Numbered from the stretch's first letter, positions 33,140-62,200 are shown. The stretch: DNA of 64,000 nucleotides from Minisyncoccota bacterium (GCA_041666915.1 JBAYFZ010000003.1:22394-86393), one strand, 5' to 3'. The notes: a model not told the origin generated them from the letters alone. A program made the numbers and translations.

Positions 33140-35401
33140 ATGATGTACGATACCCTTACTTTTACTAATATCAATTTACTCAAAAATATGCCCCTCAAGA
33201 AAATAGTTCATGGTATAACGGTCGCTTCTTTATTCCTTTTGCCGCTTTTTGCTCTATTTCCAATACCTCATACTCCGTTTGAAGTATCTAACCTTTTCTT
33301 TTTCCCATTCATTACCGGTAAAGCTTTCTATTTCAGATTGATGGTTGAGGTCGCTTTCGCAGGATGGCTTATCTTAACTTTTATTGATGCAAAATATAGA
33401 CCAAAATTAACACCACTTACTATTGGTGTAACTTTGTTTACCGTTATCGCTTTTCTTGCGGATATTCTCGGGGTCAATCCTCTTCGCAGTCTTTGGTCAA
33501 ACTTTGAACGTATGGAAGGTTGGATAACAATAGTTCATTTGTGGGCATTGTTCATGGTAACTACAAATGTCTTTGGTTCTGGAGAAGAAGGTAAGAGAAT
33601 GTGGCATCGTTGGTTGAATATGTCTCTTGCTGTTGCTTTGGTCACTGCCTTTTATGGATTGGCTCAATATTTTGGTTGGGCAGAGATTCACCAAGGTAGT
33701 ACACGTTTGGACGCTTCTCTTGGTAACTCAGCATATATGGCAGTTTATATGCTGATCCATGCTTTCATCGCTGCTTATATGTATTTTGTTGCTAAGGCAA
33801 AAAAGATTGTCAATGCTGATTTTTTGAAATGGTTTTATCCTATAATTTCTTTATTGTTTGCTTTCCTTGTATTCCAAACACAGACTCGCGGTACTATTCT
33901 AGGACTCATCGGAGGAATTCTCTTGGCTCTTGGTCTATATGCTTTGCTCGCCAAAAATGAATCAAGTAAATCTCGCGGTATTGCGGTAGGAGTTATAGCT
34001 GTCATCATCTTGATCGGTGTTATCTTCTGGACGAATCGCAATTCTTCTTTTGTTCAAAATAGTCAATTGCTCAATCGTATGGCTAGTATTTCTTGGTCAG
34101 AAGCCAAGGGTCAAGCTCGTAATTACATTTGGCCATTAGCTATAAAAGGTGCAATGGAAAGACCAATTCTCGGTTGGGGACAAGAAAACTTCAACTATAT
34201 ATTCAATGCCAATTACAATCCGGCAATGTACACCCAGGAACAATGGTTTGACCGTGCTCACAGTGTGTTCATAGATTGGTTGGTTGCAGGTGGTTTTGTA
34301 GGTGTTATTGCATATCTTGCATTGTATGTACTATTACTTATGGCAGTCTGGAAATCTTCCATGACCATTGCAGAAAAGAGTGTTCTTACAGGACTTACGG
34401 CTGGATATTTTATCCACAATATCTTCGTCTTTGATAACTTGGCTAGTTACGTTCTATTCTTTACTGTTTTAGGTTTTGCCAATTCACAAACTAGAAGTGA
34501 ACATCGTACATTATTTGGTAAAAATACAGTTAGCAAAGATGCTGTTGAATATGTAGTCGCTCCGATAGTTATAGTTTGTCTGGTTGGTGTATTGTATTTC
34601 TTCCAATATCGTTTGGTACAAGCCAATACACGTCTTATTACTGCTCTGGTTTCTTGTTCAGGAAGCGGTCAGCCAGATGCGACTTTGTATGAGAAAGCTT
34701 TGGATGTAAATGTTTACGGTGCCAACCAAGAGATTCGCGAGCAGATACTTAGTTGTGCTGGTAGAGTTATTCCTTCTCAACAACTTGCAGGTCCTATCCG
34801 ACAAGCTTTCTTTTCTACAGCAATGAATGAGATCCAAGCTCAGATAAAAGCTACTCCTAAAGATACTCGTATTTATACTTTAGGTGGTTCATTCTTGAAT
34901 AGTATAGGACAATTCAATGAAGCTTTACCTCTTCTTGAAAAAGCTCATGAATTATCACCAGCAAAGCAATCAATCTCCTTTGAGTTGGCAACTGATTATT
35001 TGAATCTTGAAAAAGCCGATAAAGCTGTCATCTTACTAAAGCAGGTTTATGAAACCACTCCAGATTTTTATCAAGCAAAATCTTCTTATGCTACAGCCTT
35101 GGTTCTTTCTGGAAAAGAGACAGAGGCTAGAAAGATATTTAGCGATGATTTGGGAATCTTCAACACCGCTCAGATGGCAAAGGCTTTTGTGATGCTCAAA
35201 CAATATTCCAAAGCTATTACAATATATAGAGGTTTGATAAAGGCTAATCCAAAAGATGTAGATCTCCGTGCTCAATTGGCCCAGATACAATATATGGCAG
35301 GTCAGATTTATGAAGCAGTTGCAACTTTGCGTGATATAGAAAAGAGTAATCCAGAATTGAAAGCTCAAATTGACGCTACTATAAAGCAGATACAAAAATA
35401 G
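33140..35401 (+). CDS. O-antigen ligase/polymerase-like membrane protein (Wzy_C-type) with C-terminal TPR repeats
   Basis: An N-terminal domain of about 470 aa has more than 10 TM helices and a large periplasmic loop. The C-terminal 250 aa are TPR-like (YEKALDVN..., AKSSYATALVLSGKETEARKIF...). Confidence 0.6.
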   Translation: MMYDTLTFTNINLLKNMPLKKIVHGITVASLFLLPLFALFPIPHTPFEVSNLFFFPFITGKAFYFRLMVEVAFAGWLILTFIDAKYRPKLTPLTIGVTLFTVIAFLADILGVNPLRSLWSNFERMEGWITIVHLWALFMVTTNVFGSGEEGKRMWHRWLNMSLAVALVTAFYGLAQYFGWAEIHQGSTRLDASLGNSAYMAVYMLIHAFIAAYMYFVAKAKKIVNADFLKWFYPIISLLFAFLVFQTQTRGTILGLIGGILLALGLYALLAKNESSKSRGIAVGVIAVIILIGVIFWTNRNSSFVQNSQLLNRMASISWSEAKGQARNYIWPLAIKGAMERPILGWGQENFNYIFNANYNPAMYTQEQWFDRAHSVFIDWLVAGGFVGVIAYLALYVLLLMAVWKSSMTIAEKSVLTGLTAGYFIHNIFVFDNLASYVLFFTVLGFANSQTRSEHRTLFGKNTVSKDAVEYVVAPIVIVCLVGVLYFFQYRLVQANTRLITALVSCSGSGQPDATLYEKALDVNVYGANQEIREQILSCAGRVIPSQQLAGPIRQAFFSTAMNEIQAQIKATPKDTRIYTLGGSFLNSIGQFNEALPLLEKAHELSPAKQSISFELATDYLNLEKADKAVILLKQVYETTPDFYQAKSSYATALVLSGKETEARKIFSDDLGIFNTAQMAKAFVMLKQYSKAITIYRGLIKANPKDVDLRAQLAQIQYMAGQIYEAVATLRDIEKSNPELKAQIDATIKQIQK

Positions 35402-35537
35402 GGGAAAAGGGTGCCCGCACTTCGAAGTTCCGTCAGGAACGAAGAAGTGGGGATAACTTGTTGAAAACTCTAAAATAGTGTGGTAGTATACCAATGTGTG
35501 AAGTACGGTGTGAGATCTCCTATATAAATGTTTCGCA

Positions 35538-35563
35538 AAGTCCCGCCTCGGCGGGCTTTTGCG
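35538..35563 (+). terminator. Candidate rho-independent terminator
   Basis: GC stem cccgcc-tc-ggcggg followed by cttttgcg, about 135 nt downstream of the 33140-35401 stop. Confidence 0.35.
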
Positions 35564-35581
35564 TTGTGGAGAGGTGGGGTT

Positions 35582-35621
35582 TTTACGGAAGCGAGGCTTC
35601 CGGAGGTGTAACCTCCGTAAA
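35582..35621. repeat. REP-like palindrome (composite: outer TTTACGGA...TCCGTAAA enclosing the 23-bp REP core)
   Basis: tttacggaagcgaggcttccggaggtgtaacctccgtaaa. The core recurs at least 7 more times in the window. Confidence 0.7.
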
Positions 35622-35772
35622 TTTTGCGTTCGCAGTAGCTTTTAAGTTATAATACTTGAGGATTGTACCAAGTGACGGCGACGGTTGTACTCACATAATT
35701 CTAAACATTTTATTTGGAGCTCGCACCCGTCGCCATCATTGGGCGCAAAATTAGTGCACAACTTAAATATTC

Positions 35773-36822
35773 ATGACTATTCAGGAAAACATTCCGCTTG
35801 CACAGTATACAACGTTCAAAATTGGCGGATTAGCTAGATATTTTTGTGTGGTTACAAATGAGACAGAACTTATTGAAGCTGTAAAATTTGCTAAAAGTAA
35901 AAAGTTGCACGTATTTATTTTGGGTGGAGGTTCAAATTTGTTGATTTCAGATGAAGGTTTTCGTGGTTTGGTTATAAAGATAGAAAATCGTGGCATTTCT
36001 TACGTAAATAATATGGTTACAGCATTTGCTGGTGAGATCTGGGATGAATTTGTTGCAAATACAGTCAGTCGTGGTTTTGGCGGTTTAGAAAATCTTTCTG
36101 CTATCCCTGGGACTGTAGGTGCTACCGCTGTACAAAATATTGGAGCTTATGGCTCGGATGTTTCCAGTGTTATTGAATCGGTTAGGGTTTTTGATACTAG
36201 TAATTTGGAATTTGTAGTTTTTTCAAATTCTGATTGCGGTTTTGATTATAGAGATAGTATATTCAAACATCAGAAAGGTCGCTTCATCGTAGTTAGTGTT
36301 ACTTTCAAACTTGAAAAGAATAAGAAAGTAGATATTGGCTACAAGGATTTGGCGGAATATTTTTCTAAAAAAGGCTTTGGTGTAGATAGTTCCGATGTGG
36401 GCAACTCTGGTGCGGATGAAAAAATCCCTTCAATTTTAGAAGTTCGTAATGCGGTTATTGAAATACGTGGTAATAAATTGCCTGATTGGAAAATGTGGGG
36501 GACAGCAGGTTCATTTTTCAAAAATCCGATAATTAAAACTAAACAATATGACGATTTGAAAAAGAAATTTCCAGATTTGCCAGGTTTTGTAGAACCAAAT
36601 GGAATGATTAAGATCCCTCTTGGTTGGATTTTGGATAAGATATGTAATTTTAAGGGACAATTTTTTGGTCACGTTGGTGTCTATGAAAAACAAGCTTTGG
36701 TTATTGTGACCAGGCCTGGTGCAAGTTCTACTGAAGTCGTAGAACTTACTAAAAAAATGCAAGATAAAGTCAAAGAAAAAACTGGTTTGATAATAGAAGC
36801 AGAGGTTGAGTGGGTCAATTGA
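35773..36822 (+). CDS. murB: UDP-N-acetylenolpyruvoylglucosamine reductase
   Basis: N-terminal ...LAQYTTFKIGGLARYFCVV...FILGGGSNLL is the FAD-binding MurB signature. The C-terminal MurB domain is present. Confidence 0.85.
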   Translation: MTIQENIPLAQYTTFKIGGLARYFCVVTNETELIEAVKFAKSKKLHVFILGGGSNLLISDEGFRGLVIKIENRGISYVNNMVTAFAGEIWDEFVANTVSRGFGGLENLSAIPGTVGATAVQNIGAYGSDVSSVIESVRVFDTSNLEFVVFSNSDCGFDYRDSIFKHQKGRFIVVSVTFKLEKNKKVDIGYKDLAEYFSKKGFGVDSSDVGNSGADEKIPSILEVRNAVIEIRGNKLPDWKMWGTAGSFFKNPIIKTKQYDDLKKKFPDLPGFVEPNGMIKIPLGWILDKICNFKGQFFGHVGVYEKQALVIVTRPGASSTEVVELTKKMQDKVKEKTGLIIEAEVEWVN

Positions 36823-36826
36823 TTTT

Positions 36827-37211
36827 GTGTCATTCCCGCGAAGGCGGGAATCCAGGATATTACCAAAACATAACGAATAATATGAATAAGGTATATTATG
36901 TTTATATATTAACAAATGATAAGAATGGTACTTTATATATAGGTGTTACTAATGATCTTAGAAGAAGATTGCATGAACACAAGAATAACCTAGTAAAAGG
37001 ATTTACAGAGAAATATAGTATTCACAAATTAGTTTGGTACGAGTGTACTAATAGTATTGATTCTGCAATACAAAGAGAGAAACAGCTTAAAAAGTGGAAT
37101 CGTAGATGGAAGATTAGATTGATTGAAGAAACTAATCCAATTTGGAAAGATTTATCCAGTAATGATCTATAGTGGTAATATCCTGGATTCCCGCCTTCGC
37201 GGGAATGACAC
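36827..37211. mobile_element. Small GIY-YIG element bounded by perfect 38-bp terminal inverted repeats
   Basis: Left: gtgtcattcccgcgaaggcgggaatccaggatattacc (36827-36864). Right: ggtaatatcctggattcccgccttcgcgggaatgacac (37174-37211). These are exact reverse complements, and each arm is itself a hairpin (ttcccgc/gcgggaa). The element is inserted between the murB stop and secA. Confidence 0.65.
36882..37172 (+). CDS. GIY-YIG nuclease family protein
   Basis: MNKVYYVYILTNDKNGTLYIGVTNDLRRRLHEHKNN...KKWNRRWK has the GIY-YIG core (YVYIL...YIGVT...R...E...N). The track ORF starting at 36810 reads through the left repeat; the internal ATG at 36882 is the more likely start. Confidence 0.75.
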   Translation: MNKVYYVYILTNDKNGTLYIGVTNDLRRRLHEHKNNLVKGFTEKYSIHKLVWYECTNSIDSAIQREKQLKKWNRRWKIRLIEETNPIWKDLSSNDL

Positions 37212-37276
37212 AAGAGGCAGTAATGTAACAAAAAGAAAGCACACAAGGCTCGCCTCACCTCAATAAATGTGATAAA

Positions 37277-39988
37277 GTGGCTCTACGCATGTCATTTTTG
37301 GATAAATTAAGAGGTGGTTCTCATACGAAGGCCTTGAAAGGGTTTCAGCCTATCGTAAAAGAGATAAATCAGCTTGAAGCAAAGATTCAGGCTCTTTCTG
37401 ATGAAGAATTGAAAAGAAAGACAGTTGAATTTAAAAAAAGACTTGAAATAGTTGATCCTAAATCTGGCGAAACCTTGAAATTTACCGACCCTGCAGAAGA
37501 AAAGAAAATTTTGAATGCGAAATTAAATGAGATTTTGCCCGAAGCTTTTGCAGTGATTCGTGAAGCATCTCGCCGTACTTTGGGTCAGAGACATTTTGAT
37601 GTTCAACTTCTGGGAGGTATGGTTTTGAATTCTGGAGGTATTGCAGAGATGCGAACTGGTGAAGGTAAGACTTTGGTGGCCACATTACCAGCGTATTTGA
37701 ATGCTCTGACTGGTAAAGGTGTACATATTGTTACAGTCAACGATTATCTCTCTAGACGTGATGCCGTTTGGATGGGTCAGATTTATTCTTTCTTGGGTCT
37801 TTCTGTAGGTGTTATAAACCACGAAGCATCTTTTTTGTATGATGCTACTGCTGTCACACCTAGTGGTGATATCCTGGATTCCCGCCGAAGTTTATCCTCG
37901 AAGGGGACGGTAAATGACAACAAGAGCCAGGAGGTCACACCTCCAGATTCGCTTCCAGATTCACTAGATAAAGAACGCGATTCACTCGGTGCTTTCAAAG
38001 TTGTTCATGAATTTCTACGACCAGTTTCTAGGCACGAAGCCTACATGGCTGACATTACTTATGGTACTAATAATGAATTCGGTTTTGATTATTTGCGTGA
38101 CAATCTAGAATATTCTAGAGATAGGTTGCGTCAGAGAACTTTCAATTACGCTATTGTTGATGAGATTGACTCTATTCTTATAGATGAAGCTAGGACACCT
38201 CTCATTATCTCTGCACCAACTCGTGATGCCGAAAGTACTTACAAACAATTTGCCCAGCTTGTTACTTCATTCAAAAAAGATGAGGACTACACGGTTGAGG
38301 AGAAACATCGTTCAATCTCTCTTACTCCAGCTGGTATTACCAAAGCTGAAAAGGCTCTGGGTATAGAAAATATTTATACAGAAAAGGGTATCAAGTCAGT
38401 CCATCATTTGGAAACTGCTATCAAGGCCGTAGCTTTGTATAACAATAACAAAGAGTATGTGGTCAAAGATAACCAGATCTTGATCGTTGATGAATTTACA
38501 GGACGTATTCAACCAGGAAGACGTTGGTCTGATGGTTTGCATCAGGCTATAGAAGCCAAAGAAGGTGTTTCTATTCAACAAGAGTCTAGGACTTATGCAT
38601 CTATTACATTCCAGAACTTTTTCCGTATGTATCCGAAGTTGTCGGGTATGACAGGTACAGCCGTCACTTCATCTGAAGAATTTTTCAAAGTTTATGGTTT
38701 GGAAGTTACAACGGTGCCTACGAACGTTCCTGCTGTTCGTAAAGATGAGAATGATCAGATCTTCCGCACGGAGATCGGTAAATACAAAGCTATTTCTCGC
38801 AAAGTAAAAGAGCTTCATGCCAAGGGTCAACCTGTTCTTATTGGTACAGTCTCTATTGAAAAAAATGAAGTTTTGTCACAGTTTTTGAAAGCGGAGGGTG
38901 TTCCTCATGAAATTTTGAATGCCAAGAATCATGAACGTGAAGGAGAGATTATCGCTCAGGCTGGCAAAAAGGGTGCTGTGACTATTGCCACAAACATGGC
39001 TGGTCGCGGAGTTGATATCAAACTTGGTGGTAATCCAAATACTCCAGAATCTTATGCAGAGATAAAACAAAACGGTGGTCTTTTTGTCCTTGGTACAGAG
39101 AGACATGAAGCACGTCGCATTGATAATCAACTTCGAGGCCGTTCGGGTCGTCAGGGTGATCCGGGTGAGACGCAATTCTTCGTTTCTCTTGAAGATACTC
39201 TCATGCGTGTCTTTGCTTCGGATATGTTGAAGTCAATGATGGGTAAGCTCGGCATGCCAGAAGATGAGGCTATTGAACATAAGATCATTTCTAGGTCTTT
39301 GGAATCTGCTCAAGAAAAGATTGAGGGATTCAATTTTGATTCTAGAAAACATGTTTTGGAATTTGATGACATCATAAATCACCAGAGAACTGCTATCTAT
39401 GGTAGACGTCGCAAATTGCTTATGGGTACAGTTGATGATGTTGAAGCGGAGTTAGGTCAGATTATTGGGGGAGAGAACTCTGATGTTACGGGAATAATTC
39501 AAAAGAAAATTGCAGAATTTGGTCGCGAACCTTTCTTGATGGCTGTTCGTATAATTTTATTACAGACGATTGATATGTATTGGGTGGAACACCTAGAGGT
39601 AATGGATTACACGCGTTCAAGTGTAAATCTACGCGCTTACGGTCAACGTGATCCTCTGGTTGAATACAAGAAGGAAGGTCTCAGACTATTCAAAGAAATG
39701 CAGGGCGCTATGAGGGAGCAAGTTATTAAAATCATTCCTCATGTAGTCCCAGTCAATGATGGTAATCCTATTGTCAGCAGTAATTCAAGCAATTCAAATG
39801 GCGCTTCAAAACCTGTTGGTATTCAAGCTGATCTGAAGGAGGTTCATGAAAATGCTCAGATTATTGGTGCAGGTGATGGCTCAAGTAGTTCAAATTCTAT
39901 TAAAAAAGAACCTGAAGTAGGTCGCAACGATCCTTGTCCTTGCGGAAGTGGTAAGAAATACAAGAAATGTCATGGGGCGGGGAAGTAA
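37277..39988 (+). CDS. secA: Preprotein translocase ATPase SecA
   Basis: [59 protein letters not shown], and the C-terminal zinc finger [14 protein letters not shown]. It has an in-frame insertion of about 55 aa after LGLSVGVI. Confidence 0.9.
37861..37886. repeat. 26-nt copy (25/26) of the outer end of the GIY-YIG element's right inverted repeat plus its preceding 'tagtggt', embedded in-frame in secA
   Basis: tagtggtgatatcctggattcccgcc at 37861-37886 versus tagtggtaatatcctggattcccgcc at 37171-37196. Confidence 0.6.
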
Positions 39989-40464
39989 TTTTTCAAATGA
40001 AAAAACAACTAACACTTTGCATAGTTCATCAACATCCAAAAGTCCTTCTTGGAATGAAGAAGAAAGGCTTTGGAGCTGGTAGATGGAATGGTTTTGGTGG
40101 TAAGGTTGAAAAAGGAGAGACTATAGAGGATGCTGCGGTGAGGGAACTACATGAAGAAGCGGGTATCAAAGCTGTCAATCTTGAAAAAGTTGGAATTTTG
40201 GATTTTGAATTTCAGGGCAACCCCGAGATTTTGGAAGTCCATATATTTAAGACCGATGATTTTCGTGGTAGACCAACCGAGAGTGATGAGATGAAACCGC
40301 AATGGTTTTTCGTAGAGGAGATTCCGTTCAAAGAAATGTGGCCAGATGACGTCTATTGGATACCACTATTTTTGAAGAGAAAGAAATTTAAAGGGAAGTT
40401 TCTCTTTGGTGAAGCAGATAAAATACTAGACAAAGATTTGACCGTGGTTGACTATTTGGAGTGA
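39967..40464 (+). CDS. NUDIX hydrolase (MutT-like)
   Basis: Nudix box [24 protein letters not shown]. Confidence 0.8.
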
Positions 40465-40522
40465 TTTTCTGGTCGCCTCCGCCCTTCGACAAGCTCAGGG
40501 CTTTGGCGAACCGAAGGAATAA

Positions 40523-40756
40523 TTATTTACCACCAAAGACTTTTTGTAATTCCTCCTTATGTTTTTCTACAGTCTCCATGACAGCTGTAGTCTGATCTTT
40601 TCCGTTTTTGACTTTACTTTGCACTTCCTCAGCTATTTTTTTGAAGAAATCGGGATTTTTTTCTAATAATTCAAAAATTTTATCCTGTTCTGCTTGAGGA
40701 ACATCCTTCATCTTTGATTTGAGTAATTGCTTGAATAAGAAGTTTTGTATGGCCAT
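40523..40756 (-). CDS. Small hypothetical alpha-helical K/E-rich protein
   Basis: 77-aa ORF in an otherwise empty gap. No recognisable domain. Confidence 0.3.
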   Translation of the reverse strand: MAIQNFLFKQLLKSKMKDVPQAEQDKIFELLEKNPDFFKKIAEEVQSKVKNGKDQTTAVMETVEKHKEELQKVFGGK

Positions 40757-40766
40757 AATGATGTGG

Positions 40767-40832
40767 TTTACGGAAGCGAGGCTTCCAGAAGTTGTTGAAA
40801 TATAGCATATTTCCGGATGTCAGGCATCTGGT
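40767..40832. repeat. Partial REP-composite (left half tttacggaagcgaggcttcc, identical to 35582-35601) plus a second hairpin family TTCCGGATGTCAGRCATC that is also at 43888-43908
   Basis: Exact 20-nt match to the element at 35582. ccggatgtcaggcatctgg versus ccggatgtcagacatcag. Confidence 0.5.
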
Positions 40833-40866
40833 TCCCAAAACCTTTATGGTGTGTTAATCTATAGTC

Positions 40867-41943
40867 ATGATTTCAAGAGTCTCCGCATACTTCTTTTTTG
40901 TCTTATTACTCTGTGCTGTTGTAGCGTCAGTCTTTATTTTCTTGCCATTTTTGACACCGATCATTTTGGGTATAGCTGCTTCGGTTATTGCTTACCCAGT
41001 CTATCGTTGGTTCAGTAAACTTTTTGGAGTTGGTAAAGTTGGTGCTGGAGCAGCTAGGACAAATTTGGCTGCTTTTCTTACCGTCCTTATTCTTGTTGTC
41101 GTTGTCGTTGTACCAGTATTCTTTTTGATCAGTAGAATGTACGTTGAAGTCCAATCTCTTTACACAGCTTTAACAGATGAATCAGAACGCTCGGTTATTA
41201 TCAATAGTCTAAATTCATTGTCCCAGTCATTATCAAATAGACTTTTCAATGTTTTCCCAGCTTATTCTTTTGATTCGCTGAACATTACAGAGTATATGAA
41301 AGGCTTTTTGATCTGGATATTTGGCAATCTGGATAAGATTTTCACTGGTGTAGCGACGGTTGCAATCTATTTGTTCGTCTTCTTATTATCAATGTTCTAT
41401 TTCCTTAGAGATGGAGCAATGATCAAGAGAAAATTTGTCTCATGGAGTCCCTTGCTTGATAATTATGATGAGTATATTACCATAACTTTGAAGAAAGCCA
41501 TTCTGTCGGTTTTCGGAGGTACTGTCGTCGTTGCTTTGATTCAAGGAATACTGACTGGATTTGGCTTCTGGATTTTCGGTGTGCCGGCTCCAGCGGTTTG
41601 GGGTGCCGTGGCATCTATCGCAGCCTTTATTCCTGGAATAGGTACAAGTCTGGTTATTGTCCCTGGAATATTGTACTTGGTATTAACTGGTAATTATCCT
41701 TATGCGGTAGGGTTAACTATTTGGGGAACAGTCGCGGTAGGCCTTATTGATAATATTCTTGGTCCTCATTTGATCAATAAAGGAGTACACATTCATCCAT
41801 TCCTTATTCTTATTTCAGTCTTGGGTGGATTGTCAGTTTTTGGACCAGTCGGATTTGTTCTAGGACCTCTCATACTTTCATTACTCTTTGCATTACTAGA
41901 GATATATAGAACATCATTTACTAACATCAAGGATGGAGAGTAG
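40867..41943 (+). CDS. AI-2E family transporter (PerM/UPF0118 membrane protein)
   Basis: 358 aa, about 8 TM segments, the characteristic length and topology. C-terminal ...GPLILSLLFALLE. Confidence 0.7.
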   Translation: MISRVSAYFFFVLLLCAVVASVFIFLPFLTPIILGIAASVIAYPVYRWFSKLFGVGKVGAGAARTNLAAFLTVLILVVVVVVPVFFLISRMYVEVQSLYTALTDESERSVIINSLNSLSQSLSNRLFNVFPAYSFDSLNITEYMKGFLIWIFGNLDKIFTGVATVAIYLFVFLLSMFYFLRDGAMIKRKFVSWSPLLDNYDEYITITLKKAILSVFGGTVVVALIQGILTGFGFWIFGVPAPAVWGAVASIAAFIPGIGTSLVIVPGILYLVLTGNYPYAVGLTIWGTVAVGLIDNILGPHLINKGVHIHPFLILISVLGGLSVFGPVGFVLGPLILSLLFALLEIYRTSFTNIKDGE

Positions 41944-56200: not shown

Positions 56201-59200
56201 CGGCAACAGTACCATTAATATTTCGGCTACTGCCACTTCAACCTTTGGTACGGGAATAGATTTAAGAACAGGTTGTTTCGCCATTAACGGCGTCTGTTTG
56301 AGCGGTGCAGACGGTACAGCAAGTTCTACACTTTTGTCTGATACTAATACTTGGACAGGTTTGAATGTCTTTGGTTACGCAAGTACCACGCAGATCAGTT
56401 CAACAGGAAATGCTTACTTTGCAACGACTGGAGGAAAGGTAGGAGTTGGAACAACTTCGCCATTCTCAACCCTTTCTGTTTCTACTCCTGCACAACAGAG
56501 CGGGTCATTACCACTTCTTACAGTAGCTTCTACGACTGGTGCGACGCTATTAACTGTTTTGGGAAATGGGAATGTGGGGATTGGAACAATGAATCCAGCG
56601 TATCCATTAGATGTTAATGGAAGTGTGAACGCAGCCTCTTATAGAACAAGTAATGTGATTTCTCTTATATTAGCAAATTCTGCTATAAATATAGGAGATA
56701 CTTATGGAAGTACTTATCCTCTTGTAGTTAATGCTGGTGGTTCAGAAAGGATGAGAGTCTCGACTGGTGGCAACGTCGGCATCGGCACCACCTCTCCATA
56801 TTCCAAACTCTCCGTCTGGGGTGCTTCAACAGGAACAAACAGAATGTTTGAATTAACCAACAGTGCTTCAACAACACTCATGAGTATGTTGGAAAATGGC
56901 ACAGGCTATTTCTTGGGTAATATTGGAATTGGAACAACTTCACCATACGCGAAACTTTCAGTGGTTGGTCCGGTAGTGGCTGAATATTTCTATGCAACCT
57001 CCACAACAGCAACTTCAACATTTGCTGGTGGGCTTGATGTAGGAAATGGTGGACTTGTTTATGAGGCTTCTACAGGTATCACTTCAGCTTCTTCATTCCA
57101 AATGGGTAACTTAAGTTTTGATCTCAATGCAGGTGCTGTATCTTGGATAGATCTTCCAATAGATAGTAGTGCCCCAGCAAATACACCACAGAGTTACACT
57201 GCCAACTTGAACGGTTTGCCAATGCTCACTATCGGAGGTCTTTCTGATGGTGCTGGGAATATTATAAATGCTGGTATCGGAATCGGTACAACTACCTCAT
57301 ATTCCAAACTCTCCGTCTGGGGTTCTTCAACAGGAACAAACAGAATGTTTGAATTAACCAACAGTGCTTCAACAACACTCATGAGTATGTTGGAAAATGG
57401 CACAGGATATTTCTTGGGTAATATTGGAATTGGAACAACCACCCCAGGTACACTCCTTTCTCTTGGAAATACCGGCAACAGTACCATTAATATTTCAGCT
57501 ACTGCCACTTCAACATTTGGTACAGGAATAAATCTAAGAACAGGTTGCTTCGCCGTCAACGGAATTTGTGTCGGTGGTGCAGATGGTACAGCAAGTTCTA
57601 CTCTACTATCAGACACCAACACATGGACAGGTTTGAATGTCTTTGGGTATGCCTCTTCAACACAATTCACAACAACGGCTGATACATATCTTGCGACATT
57701 GGGAGGCAATGTTGGCATTGGTACGACAAGTCCTGTCAGTAAGTTTTCAGTTGATGGGACTTCTAGCTTTAGTGGCTACACTATCATTGGTGGAACATCA
57801 CTTATAGATAATTCAGTTCCTCTTAATGTCATAGCTGATGGTTATTTTGGTACAGCAGGTAAGATAGCAAACTTTATTTCCAATCAAGATTATGGACATG
57901 TGGGTATATTCAAAGATGATAATTCTCGCGGATTGTTCCTCGGTTACGGTACTGGTAATTTGCTAGCAGGTAATGATAATGATGCTTTTATACAGATTGG
58001 AGCCGCATCAAGTAGTCGTGGTTACCTCCATTTGGTTGATGGTGTAGGTGCTGGTTCTGATGGTCAATTCGGTCTAATGAGTCCTTATGTTCTCATTGGA
58101 GCTTCTACTGCAAATGGAAGTGGCTCAGTCTTACAAGTTGAAGGCTTGTCTACTCTTGTTGGTAATGTTGGTGTTGGAACGACTTCACCTTTGGCAAGAT
58201 TGGATGTTGCCGGAGTCTTGGGTTCTCAAGCAGATTTATTCAATGTTTCTTCAACGACAGCAACAGATATAGTCTCAAGTCTATTTAAAGTTTCTGCAAA
58301 TGGTAATGTTACTATCGGTTATTTGAATGGTTCTCTCCAAGCTGTCAACGGAGTAGTTTCTGCAACTTCAACACTTTCAATTGCTTATGGAGGTACAGGT
58401 ACATCTACATCTCCAACATATGGAAAATTACTTATGGGTGATGGTACTGGAAAATATGACTTAGTTGCAACTTCAACATTGGGAATTTTGGGTGCTAGTG
58501 CTATTGCATTGGGTACACCTGGTCAGATACCTTATTACTCTGCAAATTTGCAAGCAGTTTCTGCAACTTCTTCTATATTTATAAATCAGACAAATAGTTT
58601 TATTGGTATCGGTACAACTACTCCTACCTCAGCTTTGTCAGTCTTCAACGCTTCCGCTCCTCAATTCCAGCTCGCATATAACACGAGTAATTACATGAAT
58701 GTCGGGGTTTCTTCTACTGGTGGAGTTACAATGGCAGTCAATGGTTCTCTCGGAGGCTTTGCTATCACAAATCCTCAACCGACCGTTGTTGGTAGTGGTA
58801 CAGGTACAAATGCTCCTCTAGGTTTCTCTGTAGCCGGTGGTATCGGAGGAAATTCAAATGATACAAATATTGGTGTTGGTGGTATCGGTGGCGGTTTGCA
58901 ACTTACAGCTGGTGTTGGAGGTTCCGCAGGACTTTCTACTTTCTCAGAGACAGGTGGTGCTGGAGGTGCAGTATCTATGCTTGCTGGTGCTGGAGGTGCA
59001 ACGGCTTCTCCTAGTATTGATTTTATGTCTAGAGTTGCAGGTAACGGAGGTCTCATGACTTTGGCTGGTGGTGCTGGAGGTAATGCTTCAAATGGTGGTC
59101 TAGCAAGTTCTAATACTGCTGGTAATGGTGGAGCTTTCACTTTGAAAGGTGGTGCTGGAGGTAATGCTAGTGGTGCTACAACCAATAATGGTGGTGCTGG

Positions 59201-62200
59201 AGGGAGTCTATATATATCAGGTGGTGCTGGAGGTACAGGTTCTACTGCAAATGGTACTGCTGGTAATCTTTATCTCGGTTATGATTCTTCAAGCGCTCTT
59301 GGTAATGTTTATTTCGGCAATCAGGGTGCCTCGTACATTACAAGTACAGGGAATTTTGGAGTTGGTACCACTTCTCCTTTCAGTAAACTTTCAGTTTCTA
59401 CTTCTGCTCAACAGGATGGATCAACGCCACTCTTTACAGTAGCTTCTACTACAAGTGCTTCGTTATTTACAGTTTTGGGAAATGGGAATGTTGGGATTGG
59501 GACAAATAATCCAACAAAGCTTTTTATTGTCGCGTCTGGAGCAAACACAGTTATGAGTATGAATTCTTCGGGTCTATTGAATATAGCAACTTATCTTCAA
59601 CTTAATGGTGGAACCGCTGTTTCTTATAGTGGTACACAGTTACAGTTGGGTACTGGTTTTACTACGCAATATTTACCAGGCAACGTCGGCATCGGCACCA
59701 CCACTCCATTAGCCAAACTTAACATCTACGGCGACGTGGTTTTCCAGACTCCAACCAATTCAGCCACGGCTTTCCAGATACTGAACGCGGCTACCAGCTC
59801 GGTCTTCTCTGTAGCTACCACCGGCTTTGGCACTACTACTTTGGCTGGTCTAAATATCTCCGGTTCAGCTACTTCTACTTCTAACGTAGGTTGGAATATT
59901 ACATCCGGTTGTTTTGCCATTAACGGCGTCTGCGTAGGAGGTGGTGCAGGCGCAGGTGATGGTACAGCAAGTTCTACTCTTTTGTCTGATAATAATACTT
60001 GGACAGGTTCTAATATATTCAATAGTAATGTTGGAATTGGTACCACCTCACCATTCTCAACTCTTTCTGTTTCTACTTCTGCACAACAAAATGGAGCATC
60101 ACCACTCTTTACAGTAGCTTCTACGACTGGTGCGACGTTATTAACTGTTTTGGGAAATGGGTATGTTGGAATTGGTAAATCTAATCCAACGGTTGCTTTG
60201 GATGTGACAGGGGGAATATCTGCTAGTGGAAATATTGCTGCTGGTGGAGCCTTATATGCGGGTGGTGTTTACGGCTTGATATGGAATGGTCGTAGTAGTA
60301 TTTATTCAACTGCTGATGGTCAATTTTCTTTCTATAATAACGCTGGAACATCTTTTTCAAGAATTAATCTTGGAGGAACCACTTCAGCTTTTCCTGCAAT
60401 TGGGGCTTCTGGATCTAATCTTATAGTCCAGTCTGCTGATGGAACACTTGGCACTAATTTAGGAGTAGGCACCTCCTCCCCATACTCCAAACTCTCCGTC
60501 TGGGGTTCTTCAACAGGAACAAACAGAATGTTTGAGCTAACCAACAGTGCCTCAACAACACTTATGAGTATGTTGGAAAATGGTACAGGCTATTTCTTGG
60601 GTAATGTTGGAATTGGTACAACTTCTCCTTATGCAAAACTTTCAGTAGTTGGTCCAGTAGTGGCTGAATACTTCCATGCAACTTCTACAACAGCAACCTC
60701 AACATTTGCTGGTGGTTTTGATGTAGGTAGTGGTGGACTTACTTACGAACAGGGTTCAGGTATTACTTATATCAGTTCTCTACAGACTTCTAATTTCAAT
60801 TTTGAAACAAATGCAGGTATGGTCTCATGGGTAGATCTTCCTACAGATTCCAATGCTCCAAGCGGTACAGTCCAGAGTTATTCAGCAGGTCTAAACGGAA
60901 GTTCAACACTTACTATATATGGTATATCAGATGGTGCTGGTAATCTTCAATCTGATTGGCCGAGAGTATCTATCGGAGGTACATCTGCAGGTACGACTAC
61001 ACCTAGTTCAAAATTGACAGTTTTTGGTAATGGTACTGGAACAGGAGGAATATTTGAGCTTGTAGATAGTGCCTCAACAACACTTATGAAAGTTTTGAAT
61101 AATGGAAGTGTCGGTATCGGCACAACCTCTCCAGGTACTCTTCTTTCTCTCGGAAACACTGGAAACAATACAATCAACATCTCAGCTACTGCCACTTCAA
61201 CCTTTGGCACAGGAATAAACCTAAGAACAGGATGTTTTGCTGTTAATGATGTTTGTATAGGTGGCGGTGGTGGTGCAGGCGACGGCACATCAAGTTCTAC
61301 TCTACTATCTGATTACAACACATGGACAGGTTTGAATGTCTTCGGATATGCAAGTACCACACAGATCAGTTCAACTGGAAATGCTTACTTTGCTACAACA
61401 GGTGGAAAGGTAGGAGTTGGAACAACTTCACCATTCTCAACTCTTTCAGTTTCTACTTCTGCACAACAAGATGGAGCATTACCACTCTTTACAGTGGCTT
61501 CTACTACTGGAGCTTCGTTACTTACAGTTTTGGGAAATGGGTATGTTGGTATCGGAACAGCAAGCCCAACAAATGTTCTTGATGTCAGTGGAACATTCAA
61601 ATCTAGTGGCCAATCAATAGTCGCTGACGCCTTCCGTTTCTATACAGGCAACAGTGATGCTGGTACCTCATACAGTGATTTTAGAACAAATCCTGCAACC
61701 GGTAATGCAATACTTAGCGCAAAGTCTGGAGCTGTCTATTTCAACTACGATCACGGCAATCAAGGAGTCATCTTTTCAAACGGATCTCAAGCTACGGTAG
61801 CTACTATAAATAGTACTGGACACGCAGTGTTCTATGGTACGGGTGATAACTCATTTGCAGGAGAATTGGGCGTTGGTACAACCACTCCATATTCCAGACT
61901 TTCAGTTTGGGGGGCTTCAACAGGAACAAATAGGATGTTTGAATTAACAAACAGTGCTTCAACAACACTCATGAGTGTATTGGAAAATGGTACAGGTTAT
62001 TTCTCAGGAAATATTGGAATAGGAACAACCACCCCAGGTTCTATCCTTTCTTTGGGTGATACTGGCAGTAACACCATCAACATCTCAGCCACAGCCACTT
62101 CAACATTTGGCACAGGTATAAACCTAAGAACAGGATGTTTTGCTGTTAATGATGTTTGTATAGGTGGCGGTGGTGGTGCAGGCGACGGCACATCAAGTTC

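Follow-up and report, generated by a model that had tools for sequence, protein, structure and literature searches.

In the stretch of DNA analysed here, 64,000 nucleotides (64 kb) from a Paceibacterota (CPR) MAG and called the window below, the interval between murB and secA holds what we judge from the sequence, with a probability of about 0.85, to be an NTS-ssn-NTS cassette: the gene of a 96-aa Ssn-family nuclease enclosed by two inward-facing copies of its cognate recognition hairpin. The locus belongs to the Ssn/NTS system already described in 2025 (PMC11893778), and it leaves the published picture unchanged. What it adds is a minimal and uncluttered example from a CPR genome that is itself reduced, with a perfect 41-nt repeat and a comparison of filled and empty sites that is resolved to the base. 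The mobility of NTS-ssn-NTS and the role of Ssn outside Neisseria are questions raised by the discoverers of the system (PMC11893778). The locus comprises the following features.

35773-36822, + strand: murB (FAD_binding_4 and MurB_C domains), context, ending in a TGA stop
36821-37245, no strand assigned: extra segment of 425 nt compared with the relative L001, with breakpoints within the murB stop codon or directly at it
36825-36865, + strand: left inverted-repeat arm, 41 nt, TTGTGTCATTCCCGCGAAGGCGGGAATCCAGGATATTACCA
36828-36855, + strand: left NTS/SRM motif, an SRM pattern match that points into the cassette
36832-36851 and 37187-37206: hairpin cores, one per arm
36882-37172, + strand: ssn, the gene of a single-domain GIY-YIG nuclease of the Ssn family, ATG to TAG, 96 aa
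37173-37213, - strand: right inverted-repeat arm, 41 nt, exact reverse complement of the left arm
37183-37210, - strand: right NTS/SRM motif, an SRM pattern match that points into the cassette
37214-37245, no strand assigned: extra 32 nt outside the inverted repeat, likewise absent from L001
37289-39988, + strand: secA, context, with the conserved MSFLDK start at 37289
37858-37930, - strand: degenerate third arm copy, in-frame inside secA and part of a loop insertion

Ssn proteins are site-specific ssDNA endonucleases, single-domain GIY-YIG proteins of ~94 aa that correspond to CDD cd10448 (GIY-YIG_unchar_3) (Chenal et al., Nat Commun 2025, PMC11893778). Their target is a directional hairpin, the Neisseria Transformation Sequence CGTCATTCCCGCGMAVGCGGGAATCYRG (NTS) or more generally the SRM motif; both binding and cutting are confined to ssDNA, which is cleaved a few nt 5' of the motif, while dsDNA, RNA and the reverse strand stay uncut (PMC11893778). 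Cleavage at the motif was shown experimentally for four homologs, from Neisseria, N. elongata, N. wadsworthii and Wolbachia, and mutations of Y6, Y17 and E64 abolish cleavage by Nm SsnA (PMC11893778). The ssn genes typically bear the motif on both sides, and the authors call the NTS-ssnA-NTS architecture IS-like; the genomes are usually, though not always, rich in SRM copies, and ssn is present in 81% of the genomes with >200 SRMs (PMC11893778). For N. meningitidis SsnA, donor DNA of the form NTS-gene-NTS was found to transform less well (PMC11893778).

A reading made earlier from the sequence alone, hereafter the sequence-only reading, had recognised a 96-aa GIY-YIG ORF between two repeats. 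This ORF is confirmed at 36882-37172, with a Pfam GIY-YIG match at E 2e-17 over residues 5-78; T5orf172, which overlaps GIY-YIG, is the sole other family match of the protein. The Ssn family has been delimited by a <150 aa filter and by homology to Neisseria SsnA at E < 1e-10 (PMC11893778). The window protein has 96 aa and no extra domain, and BLASTP aligns it with the SsnA ortholog of N. gonorrhoeae at 58% identity over 85 ungapped residues (E 2e-38). This reference is the 94-aa gonococcal ortholog (L132, 1489-1773), not the meningococcal protein itself. It was found by tblastn against PLSDB in two 2.17-Mb N. gonorrhoeae chromosomes filed as plasmids, and we regard it as the SsnA ortholog because it has 94 aa with Y6, Y17 and E64. 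These residues align to Y8, Y19 and E66 of the window protein with identical spacing (11 and 47); Y8, Y19 and E66 are invariant across 35 homologs and are the predicted catalytic residues.

An AF2 model of the protein forms one compact domain (pLDDT 91.7), the significant structural neighbours of which are all GIY-YIG nucleases (UPF0213, Slx1, HIGLE and UvrC-N). We found no Ssn structure in the PDB. The nearest solved structures are UPF0213 proteins (1zg2, with E 1.8e-4 by sequence and a Foldseek E of 2.4e-4), and the UPF0213/YhbQ-like proteins (1zg2, 1ywl) resemble the window protein in size and fold. The sequence similarity nevertheless amounts to 110 bits to SsnA versus 25 bits to UPF0213, and we know of no association of UPF0213/YhbQ-like proteins with NTS hairpins. 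Neither Pfam nor NCBIfam contains a subfamily model for Ssn. The GC content of the ssn ORF is 0.278, compared with 0.373 for the window. To our knowledge, Ssn enzymes are the only nucleases that cut ssDNA site-specifically; they are being developed as ssDNA tools.

The gene is framed by two arms of 41 nt (36825-36865 and 37173-37213) that are 100% complementary and lie 307 nt apart, the whole inverted-repeat unit spanning 389 bp. The sequence-only reading was right that the repeats are exact reverse complements and that they bound a unit, although its figures of 38 bp for each repeat and 385 bp for the unit were too short. The 41-mer occurs at just these two sites in 64 kb, even with up to 3 mismatches allowed, and the arm match was reproduced by 0/100 dinucleotide shuffles; on both grounds, the arm pair is not due to chance. 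The left arm starts 2 nt past the murB stop, which agrees with the claimed location between the murB stop and the secA upstream region, the right arm starts directly after the ssn stop codon, and its end lies 75 nt before the secA ATG.

Each arm contains the hairpin ATTCCCGC-GAAG-GCGGGAAT, with a loop of 4 nt and a stem of 8 bp in place of the 7 bp first proposed, and it folds as ssDNA with -8.7 to -9.7 kcal/mol (z -2.7 to -3.3). In both arms, the sequence TGTCATTCCCGCGAAGGCGGGAATCCAG agrees with the Neisseria NTS consensus at 27 of 28 positions. The two SRM matches in the window, compared with a mean of 0.06 in shuffles, lie in the 5' and 3' flanks of ssn, each with the directional bases, a GTC before the palindrome and a C directly after it, and the perfect inverted repeat reaches 9-10 nt beyond the NTS. 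With this 27/28 motif, the proposal that the repeats might be recognition sites of the nuclease is borne out by analogy with the experimentally characterised homologs of the family (PMC11893778). At the sequence level, the protein and its putative sites agree with every testable property of Ssn members. The count of SRM copies covered the 64-kb window and gave 2 intact motifs and 1 degenerate relic.

A scan of the unit found neither an intrinsic terminator nor a + strand promoter, and a T-tract is absent after either hairpin. Because the scan gave no terminator within the unit, we dropped the idea of a terminator pair. The three genes are co-oriented and the unit is devoid of terminators and + strand promoters, so ssn is probably co-transcribed with murB and secA. 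An Rfam search of the window gave no family at threshold. Both arms match FtrB weakly, and these matches were rejected, as they arise only from the NTS core within the FtrB consensus. As a side observation, in an RNA form the two arms could pair with each other as a 41-bp stem.

The association between this gene and this hairpin extends far beyond the window. A scan with one genome per species retrieved 80 loci from >15 phyla, encoding proteins 56-70% identical to the window protein. The published SRM pattern lies within 300 nt of 52 of 86 genes and on both sides of 19 of them. When NTS motifs were defined by their anchors, 95 motifs within 200 nt of 87 homolog genes from >15 phyla pointed inward versus 18 outward, and 33 of these genes were flanked by inward motifs on either side. 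Independently of any motif, a search for inverted repeats from flank to flank gave scores >=15 for 54 of 83 genes, compared with ~9 in shuffled controls, and the repeats thus retrieved are NTS-like hairpins. The arms for the covariation analysis were chosen by their outer anchors alone, and selection on a perfect stem was avoided as circular. The inner three stem positions are paired in 90 of 91 anchor-selected arms, using at least 8 combinations. In the alignment of 83 arm sequences, 99.8% of the cells are paired, with compensatory double changes at 5 of the 8 stem pairs; none of 500 shuffles (0/500) reaches the observed values, and slid controls pair at 17-54%. Because stem pairing and compensatory changes exceed all shuffles, the hairpin is a selected structure. 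G7, T8, C9 and C30 are invariant in the 83 arms from many phyla, and this invariant GTC before the hairpin and C after it agree with published mutagenesis (PMC11893778).

Comparison with related genomes indicates that the unit is an insertion. In L001, the closest relative (MurB 77%), the sequence reads ...GGGTCAATTAG/GCTCGCTCAACCTCAATAAATG..., the murB stop followed by the secA leader. Blastn carries window positions 36820 and 37246 to the adjacent L001 positions 1762 and 1763, respectively, and the junction CAATT/AGGCTCG of L001 corresponds to CAATT/GATTTTGTGTC...CACACA/AGGCTCG in the window. No NTS is present at the empty site of L001. The empty-site junction has the form ...GGGTCAATT[AG/GA]GGCTCGCC..., and the murB stop is TGA in the window versus TAG in the empty-site relatives. 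As aligned, the insertion point lies inside the TAG stop and the insert provides the GA that turns it into TGA; a placement 2 nt further to the right combined with a TAG/TGA substitution could account for the same sequences. Besides the 389-bp unit, the insert includes 4 nt on the left (36821-36824) and 32 nt on the right (37214-37245), and the latter might be either co-inserted sequence or an ancestral spacer lost in L001.

As murB of L001 runs straight into the secA leader, the claim of an inserted unit is upheld. The comparison of murB-secA synteny that the sequence-only reading proposed yielded, in addition to this clean empty site, two relatives in which murB adjoins secA too (L003 and L004, MurB 63%), and one with an unrelated 303-aa gene between murB and secA (L002, MurB 65%). 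Thus, ssn is missing from the orthologous site in all four relatives (L001-L004), and parsimony from these sequences favours a gain of the cassette in the lineage of the window. Three contigs of this species, recovered from three samples, either contain the cassette or end within its left hairpin (3/3), one of them (L086) being 100% identical over 2975 nt.

The cassette also behaves as a discrete unit when its copies are compared with each other. Homology between the window and the related cassette L089 covers 36818-37213 and ends at the edge of the right arm, and two paralogous cassettes in L012 share 85% identity across 398 nt, up to the outer edges of the NTS. Several genomes (L012, L039, L078 and L009/L019) contain 2-3 copies, with paralogs 85-94% identical. 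The nearest protein relatives reside in unrelated surroundings: P0004 (79% identity) is flanked by an ATP-cone/Mrr gene and ddl, P0008 (76%) follows RNase J, and P0010 (75%) has an aminoacyl-tRNA synthetase and an M50 protease on its two sides. The context of P0010 is the same in 14 of 14 contigs, which argues against frequent movement. At the P0004 locus (L088), the relatives L134/L135, 94% identical in DNA, cease to align exactly at the stop codon, which lies 2-3 nt away from the left arm. We considered this locus as a second clean empty site and rejected it, as the relatives hold another gene in the segment, which indicates replacement. As ssn was found on viral contigs at 13 loci only, it is not phage-borne as a rule.

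The search for further repeat copies, also proposed by the sequence-only reading, found arm copies in metagenomes and, within 64 kb, one degenerate copy in secA. An exact search of metagenomes with the 33-nt arm core returned 29 loci with 65 NTS-like motifs, 3 of them beside an ssn gene. Among these loci (L090-L118), 21 convergent pairs of NTS, 84-185 bp long and without a gene, have the extended arm (...CCAGGATRTWACCA), and one of them (L096) carries the extended arm of the window exactly. A subfamily of ~114 bp with a conserved spacer is present at five loci on four contigs (L093, L101, L105, L115 and L118). We found no target-site duplications at the window unit or at the 21 gene-less pairs, and the 64-kb window contains no second ssn copy and no further intact NTS.

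Several known systems resemble the cassette in part. It shares with the Ssn/NTS system of Neisseria the single domain of ~94-96 aa, the conserved Y/Y/E residues and the motif on both sides of the gene (PMC11893778). It differs in its host, a Paceibacterota (CPR) MAG with 37% GC, and in the number of motifs, since the window has 2 flanking motifs and a relic in 64 kb, whereas Neisseria has hundreds per genome; for this reason, the role in modulating transformation may not apply here. Orientation differs as well: the nearest NTS at the gonococcal locus face outward, in arrays, whereas those of the window and of most phyla face inward. In Neisseria, NIMEs consist of dRS3 inverted repeats flanking RS elements of 50-150 bp in Neisseria-specific arrays (Bentley et al. 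2007, PMC1797815). The hairpin core of the window is a dRS3 (ATTCCC-N8-GGGAAT), and the gene-less convergent metagenome pairs of 84-185 bp have the same dRS3-spacer-dRS3 layout; however, those pairs stand isolated in low-GC environmental contigs, and the window unit has a gene-bearing spacer of 307 nt.

IS200/IS605 and REP/RAYT systems employ HUH Y1 transposases acting on ssDNA hairpins, with distinct left and right hairpins. They are alike in combining a small enzyme with subterminal ssDNA hairpins, an adjacent cut and no target-site duplication, and in the multiplication of associated short palindromic repeats in genomes. Unlike theirs, the ends of the window unit are inverted copies of one motif and its enzyme is a GIY-YIG hydrolase. 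Because its only ORF encodes a GIY-YIG protein and no HUH enzyme, the cassette belongs neither to IS200/IS605 nor to REP-RAYT.

By homology to the characterised members, each strand would fold its 8-bp GC-rich hairpin once the DNA becomes single-stranded. The nuclease would then bind both the hairpin and the directional bases beside its stem, GTC on the 5' side and C on the 3' side, and would cut a few nt 5' of the motif, sparing dsDNA, RNA and the complementary strand. With both motifs facing into the cassette, cleavage is predicted at its two outer edges, on the top strand near 36822-36827, just left of 36828, and on the bottom strand near 37211-37216, just right of 37210. Homology to the relatives breaks at these positions. 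That this enzyme cuts these two sites is what we infer by analogy with its characterised homologs. This Paceibacterota lineage probably acquired the cassette at the murB stop, within a co-oriented murB-secA pair, without terminators. The candidate outcomes are self-propagation, shielding of the resident allele from incoming NTS-bearing ssDNA, and a host function as in Neisseria. The clean junctions at the predicted cuts, the gene-less miniatures and the relic in secA together make the hypothesis of mobility concretely testable.

What the cassette does for its own spread or for its host is a matter of weighing these outcomes. A tentative possibility is that NTS-ssn-NTS is a self-mobilising prokaryotic transposable element of a new class, with IS200/IS605 and REP/RAYT as analogues. 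A GIY-YIG enzyme of ~95 aa, acting as the transposase, would nick each strand as ssDNA at the 5' border of the element, next to the hairpin, host repair would finish the reaction, and the gene-less pairs would be MITE-like derivatives. Filled and empty sites at murB-secA, homology between copies that stops at the outer arm edges, the three unrelated contexts of the nearest protein relatives (75-79%) and the 2-3 copies in several genomes all point in this direction, as do the 21 gene-less convergent NTS pairs with a shared extended arm, including the ~114-bp subfamily at five loci, and the degenerate arm copy within secA. The low GC content of the ssn ORF (0.278 versus 0.373), 56-70% identity over >15 phyla, predicted cuts that fall on the junctions and the IS-like architecture remarked by the authors (PMC11893778) are consistent with it too. 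If it were true, the gene-less NIME-like pairs and in-frame relics such as that of secA would be non-autonomous progeny, and the window would be a clean minimal example, combining a single element with a single relic and with an empty site that is defined at a stop codon. However, GIY-YIG enzymes are hydrolytic, and we know of no strand-transfer activity or covalent intermediate among them, so the joining step would need host functions. Target-site duplications are absent from the window unit and the 21 others, within 64 kb there is neither another ssn copy nor an intact NTS on its own, the position is fixed in 3/3 same-species contigs and, for P0010, in 14/14 contigs, and viral-contig loci are few (13). 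The filled/empty comparison at L088 amounts to a segment replacement, and in Neisseria, dRS3 is a known target of other recombinases. Somewhat less probable, and on balance unlikely, is a domesticated host function as in Neisseria, namely restriction of incoming NTS-bearing ssDNA in natural transformation, by which the choice of replaceable loci would be tuned, with the flanking motifs being incidental or autoregulatory. It has been demonstrated for N. meningitidis SsnA (PMC11893778), and the arm motif almost identical to the Neisseria NTS and the stable position within populations would suit it; but intact motifs within 64 kb occur at the ssn flanks only, which leaves such an enzyme little in the genome to regulate. 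The mobile-cassette reading is thus partly supported: the insertion and the discrete ends of the compact mobile element first proposed stand, whereas autonomous mobility is not demonstrated, given no target-site duplication, no second copy and fixed positions.

The term homing-type cassette, which the sequence-only reading had also applied, has to be abandoned. GIY-YIG homing enzymes such as I-TevI, I-BmoI and phage Seg/Mob measure ~200-270 aa, carry a DNA-binding domain at the C-terminus, cleave the empty allele as dsDNA and reside in introns or phage genomes. The cassette shares their catalytic fold and the insertion polymorphism between relatives, and the protein has a weak N-terminal match to TIGR01453 (group I intron endonuclease). 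Yet neither the size, nor the extra domain, the dsDNA target or the intron/phage setting holds here. The match to TIGR01453 reaches 30.0 bits, below the cut-off of 56.05, and covers residues 7-41 alone, and the 96-aa single domain lacks the DNA-binding module on which GIY-YIG homing enzymes depend. The element itself carries the recognition motif while the empty site has no NTS, and an intron or intein context is absent. Characterised Ssn members cut ssDNA only, not dsDNA (PMC11893778). We therefore consider it very improbable that the gene was copied in by repair of a cut empty allele, as in classical homing. The least credible reading of all is a housekeeping UPF0213/YhbQ-like GIY-YIG protein next to a regulatory or terminator hairpin pair. 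UPF0213 (1zg2) is indeed the best solved-structure relative, and GC-rich stem-loops in an AT-rich genome might suggest regulation. Against this stand the 110 bits to SsnA versus 25 bits to UPF0213, hairpins without a T-tract in a unit without a terminator, the absence of the gene at the orthologous site of all four relatives, and the same hairpin flanking homologs in >15 phyla. The empty sites together with the cross-phylum association of gene and motif refute it, in keeping with the initial remark that this is not an ordinary housekeeping gene. The NTS-ssn-NTS cassette is accordingly an accessory unit, neither a housekeeping gene nor a classical homing endonuclease.

In the secA relic, positions 37861-37886 are identical to 37170-37195 at 25 of 26 nt (blastn E 3e-5), followed by a gapped match through AATGACA-CAAGAG-CAG. 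The arm copy encodes part of a loop insertion specific to the lineage, and SecA of L002 and L003 is without these ~24-31 residues. Rickettsia palindromic elements, which Ogata and co-workers are said to have described in 2000, are reportedly inserted in-frame in protein genes. The secA copy resembles them in that a segment derived from a repeat sits in frame in an essential protein, at a permissive loop, and differs in belonging to another repeat family and another host and in being a single case here. We also observed that the first ~7 nt of 37214-37245 (GAGGCAG) resemble the sequence past the degenerate arm copy in secA.

The empty-site test took as its synteny frame the gene order conserved at window 33140-41943, in which a Wzy_C/TPR protein, murB, secA, a NUDIX gene and an AI-2E transporter follow one another, an order that is also kept in the three more distant relatives (L002-L004). 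Within this frame, the gap between murB and secA holds other sequences in two of them. The L002 gap carries a 303-aa gene that could not be annotated and is encoded on the opposite strand. In L003, the same intergenic gap is filled by a palindrome that differs from the cassette repeat and is followed by a short direct repeat:

L003 6047-6092: perfect 46-nt palindrome, GTACAGAGGTGTGACATCTGCG-AA-CGCAGATGTCACACCTCTGTAC, in the murB-secA spacer

The gap appears to be an insertion hotspot in the clade of the window genome and its relatives.

The gene upstream of the cassette ends with a TGA stop codon 2 nt from the left arm in both the window (36820-36822) and L088 (3002-3004), the locus of the nearest related cassette, and the junction reads TGATT(T)TGTGTCATT in both. 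The murB stop codon is TAG in the empty-site relatives, and the last two bases of the window murB stop codon may have been supplied by the insert. A further arm-like sequence lies downstream:

Window 37858-37930: degenerate copy of the cassette right arm, in-frame inside secA

This copy is held in a loop insertion of ~24-31 aa, which SecA of L002 and L003 does not have, and looks like a repeat-derived insertion tolerated by an essential protein. In the closest relative (L001), the contig breaks off at precisely the position of this arm copy.

Elsewhere, NTS hairpins occur both without the gene and between several copies of it, tandem or close together within one genome:

L093, L101 (3572-3685), L105, L115 and L118: gene-less unit of ~94-114 bp
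L039 5001-6281: three ssn in a row, Flavivirga sp.
L078 4130-5261: two ssn, Ignavibacteriaceae MAG
L012 1258-3998: two ssn, Bdellovibrionales MAG

In the gene-less unit, a pair of NTS arms in inverted orientation encloses an AT-rich spacer that is conserved between the copies (…GGATTATTACGAGATAATAGTTT…TTTGTGGTAA…). Its five loci are spread over four contigs (GC ~0.37-0.40; one with two copies) of a single metagenome, and the units behave like a MITE family.

The NTS core GTCATTCCCGCGAAGGCGGGAAT is identical between the viral contigs (L119-L131), with 66-69% GC, and the window genome, with 37% GC; conservation of the motif is independent of host base composition. The PLSDB records NZ_CP119140.1 and NZ_CP119142.1 (L132; 2.17 Mb) are listed as plasmids but evidently represent the complete chromosome of Neisseria gonorrhoeae; each has a single ssnA ortholog within NTS arrays, where the nearest NTS copies point outward. 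Sub-threshold matches to Rfam RF02748, the Francisella sRNA FtrB, were found at the window arms because the FtrB consensus contains the NTS core GUCAUUCCCGCGUAGGCGGGAAUC:

Window 36811-36912, + strand: sub-threshold FtrB match
Window 37147-37231, - strand: sub-threshold FtrB match

An overlap of the annotated Francisella sRNA with a repeat of the NTS/SRM type is therefore possible.

The window ends within a very long reading frame:

Window 57003-63998, + strand: ORF of >2,332 codons without a stop, continuing past the window end

Its product, with Thr/Ser/Pro-rich ends, is probably a giant surface protein.
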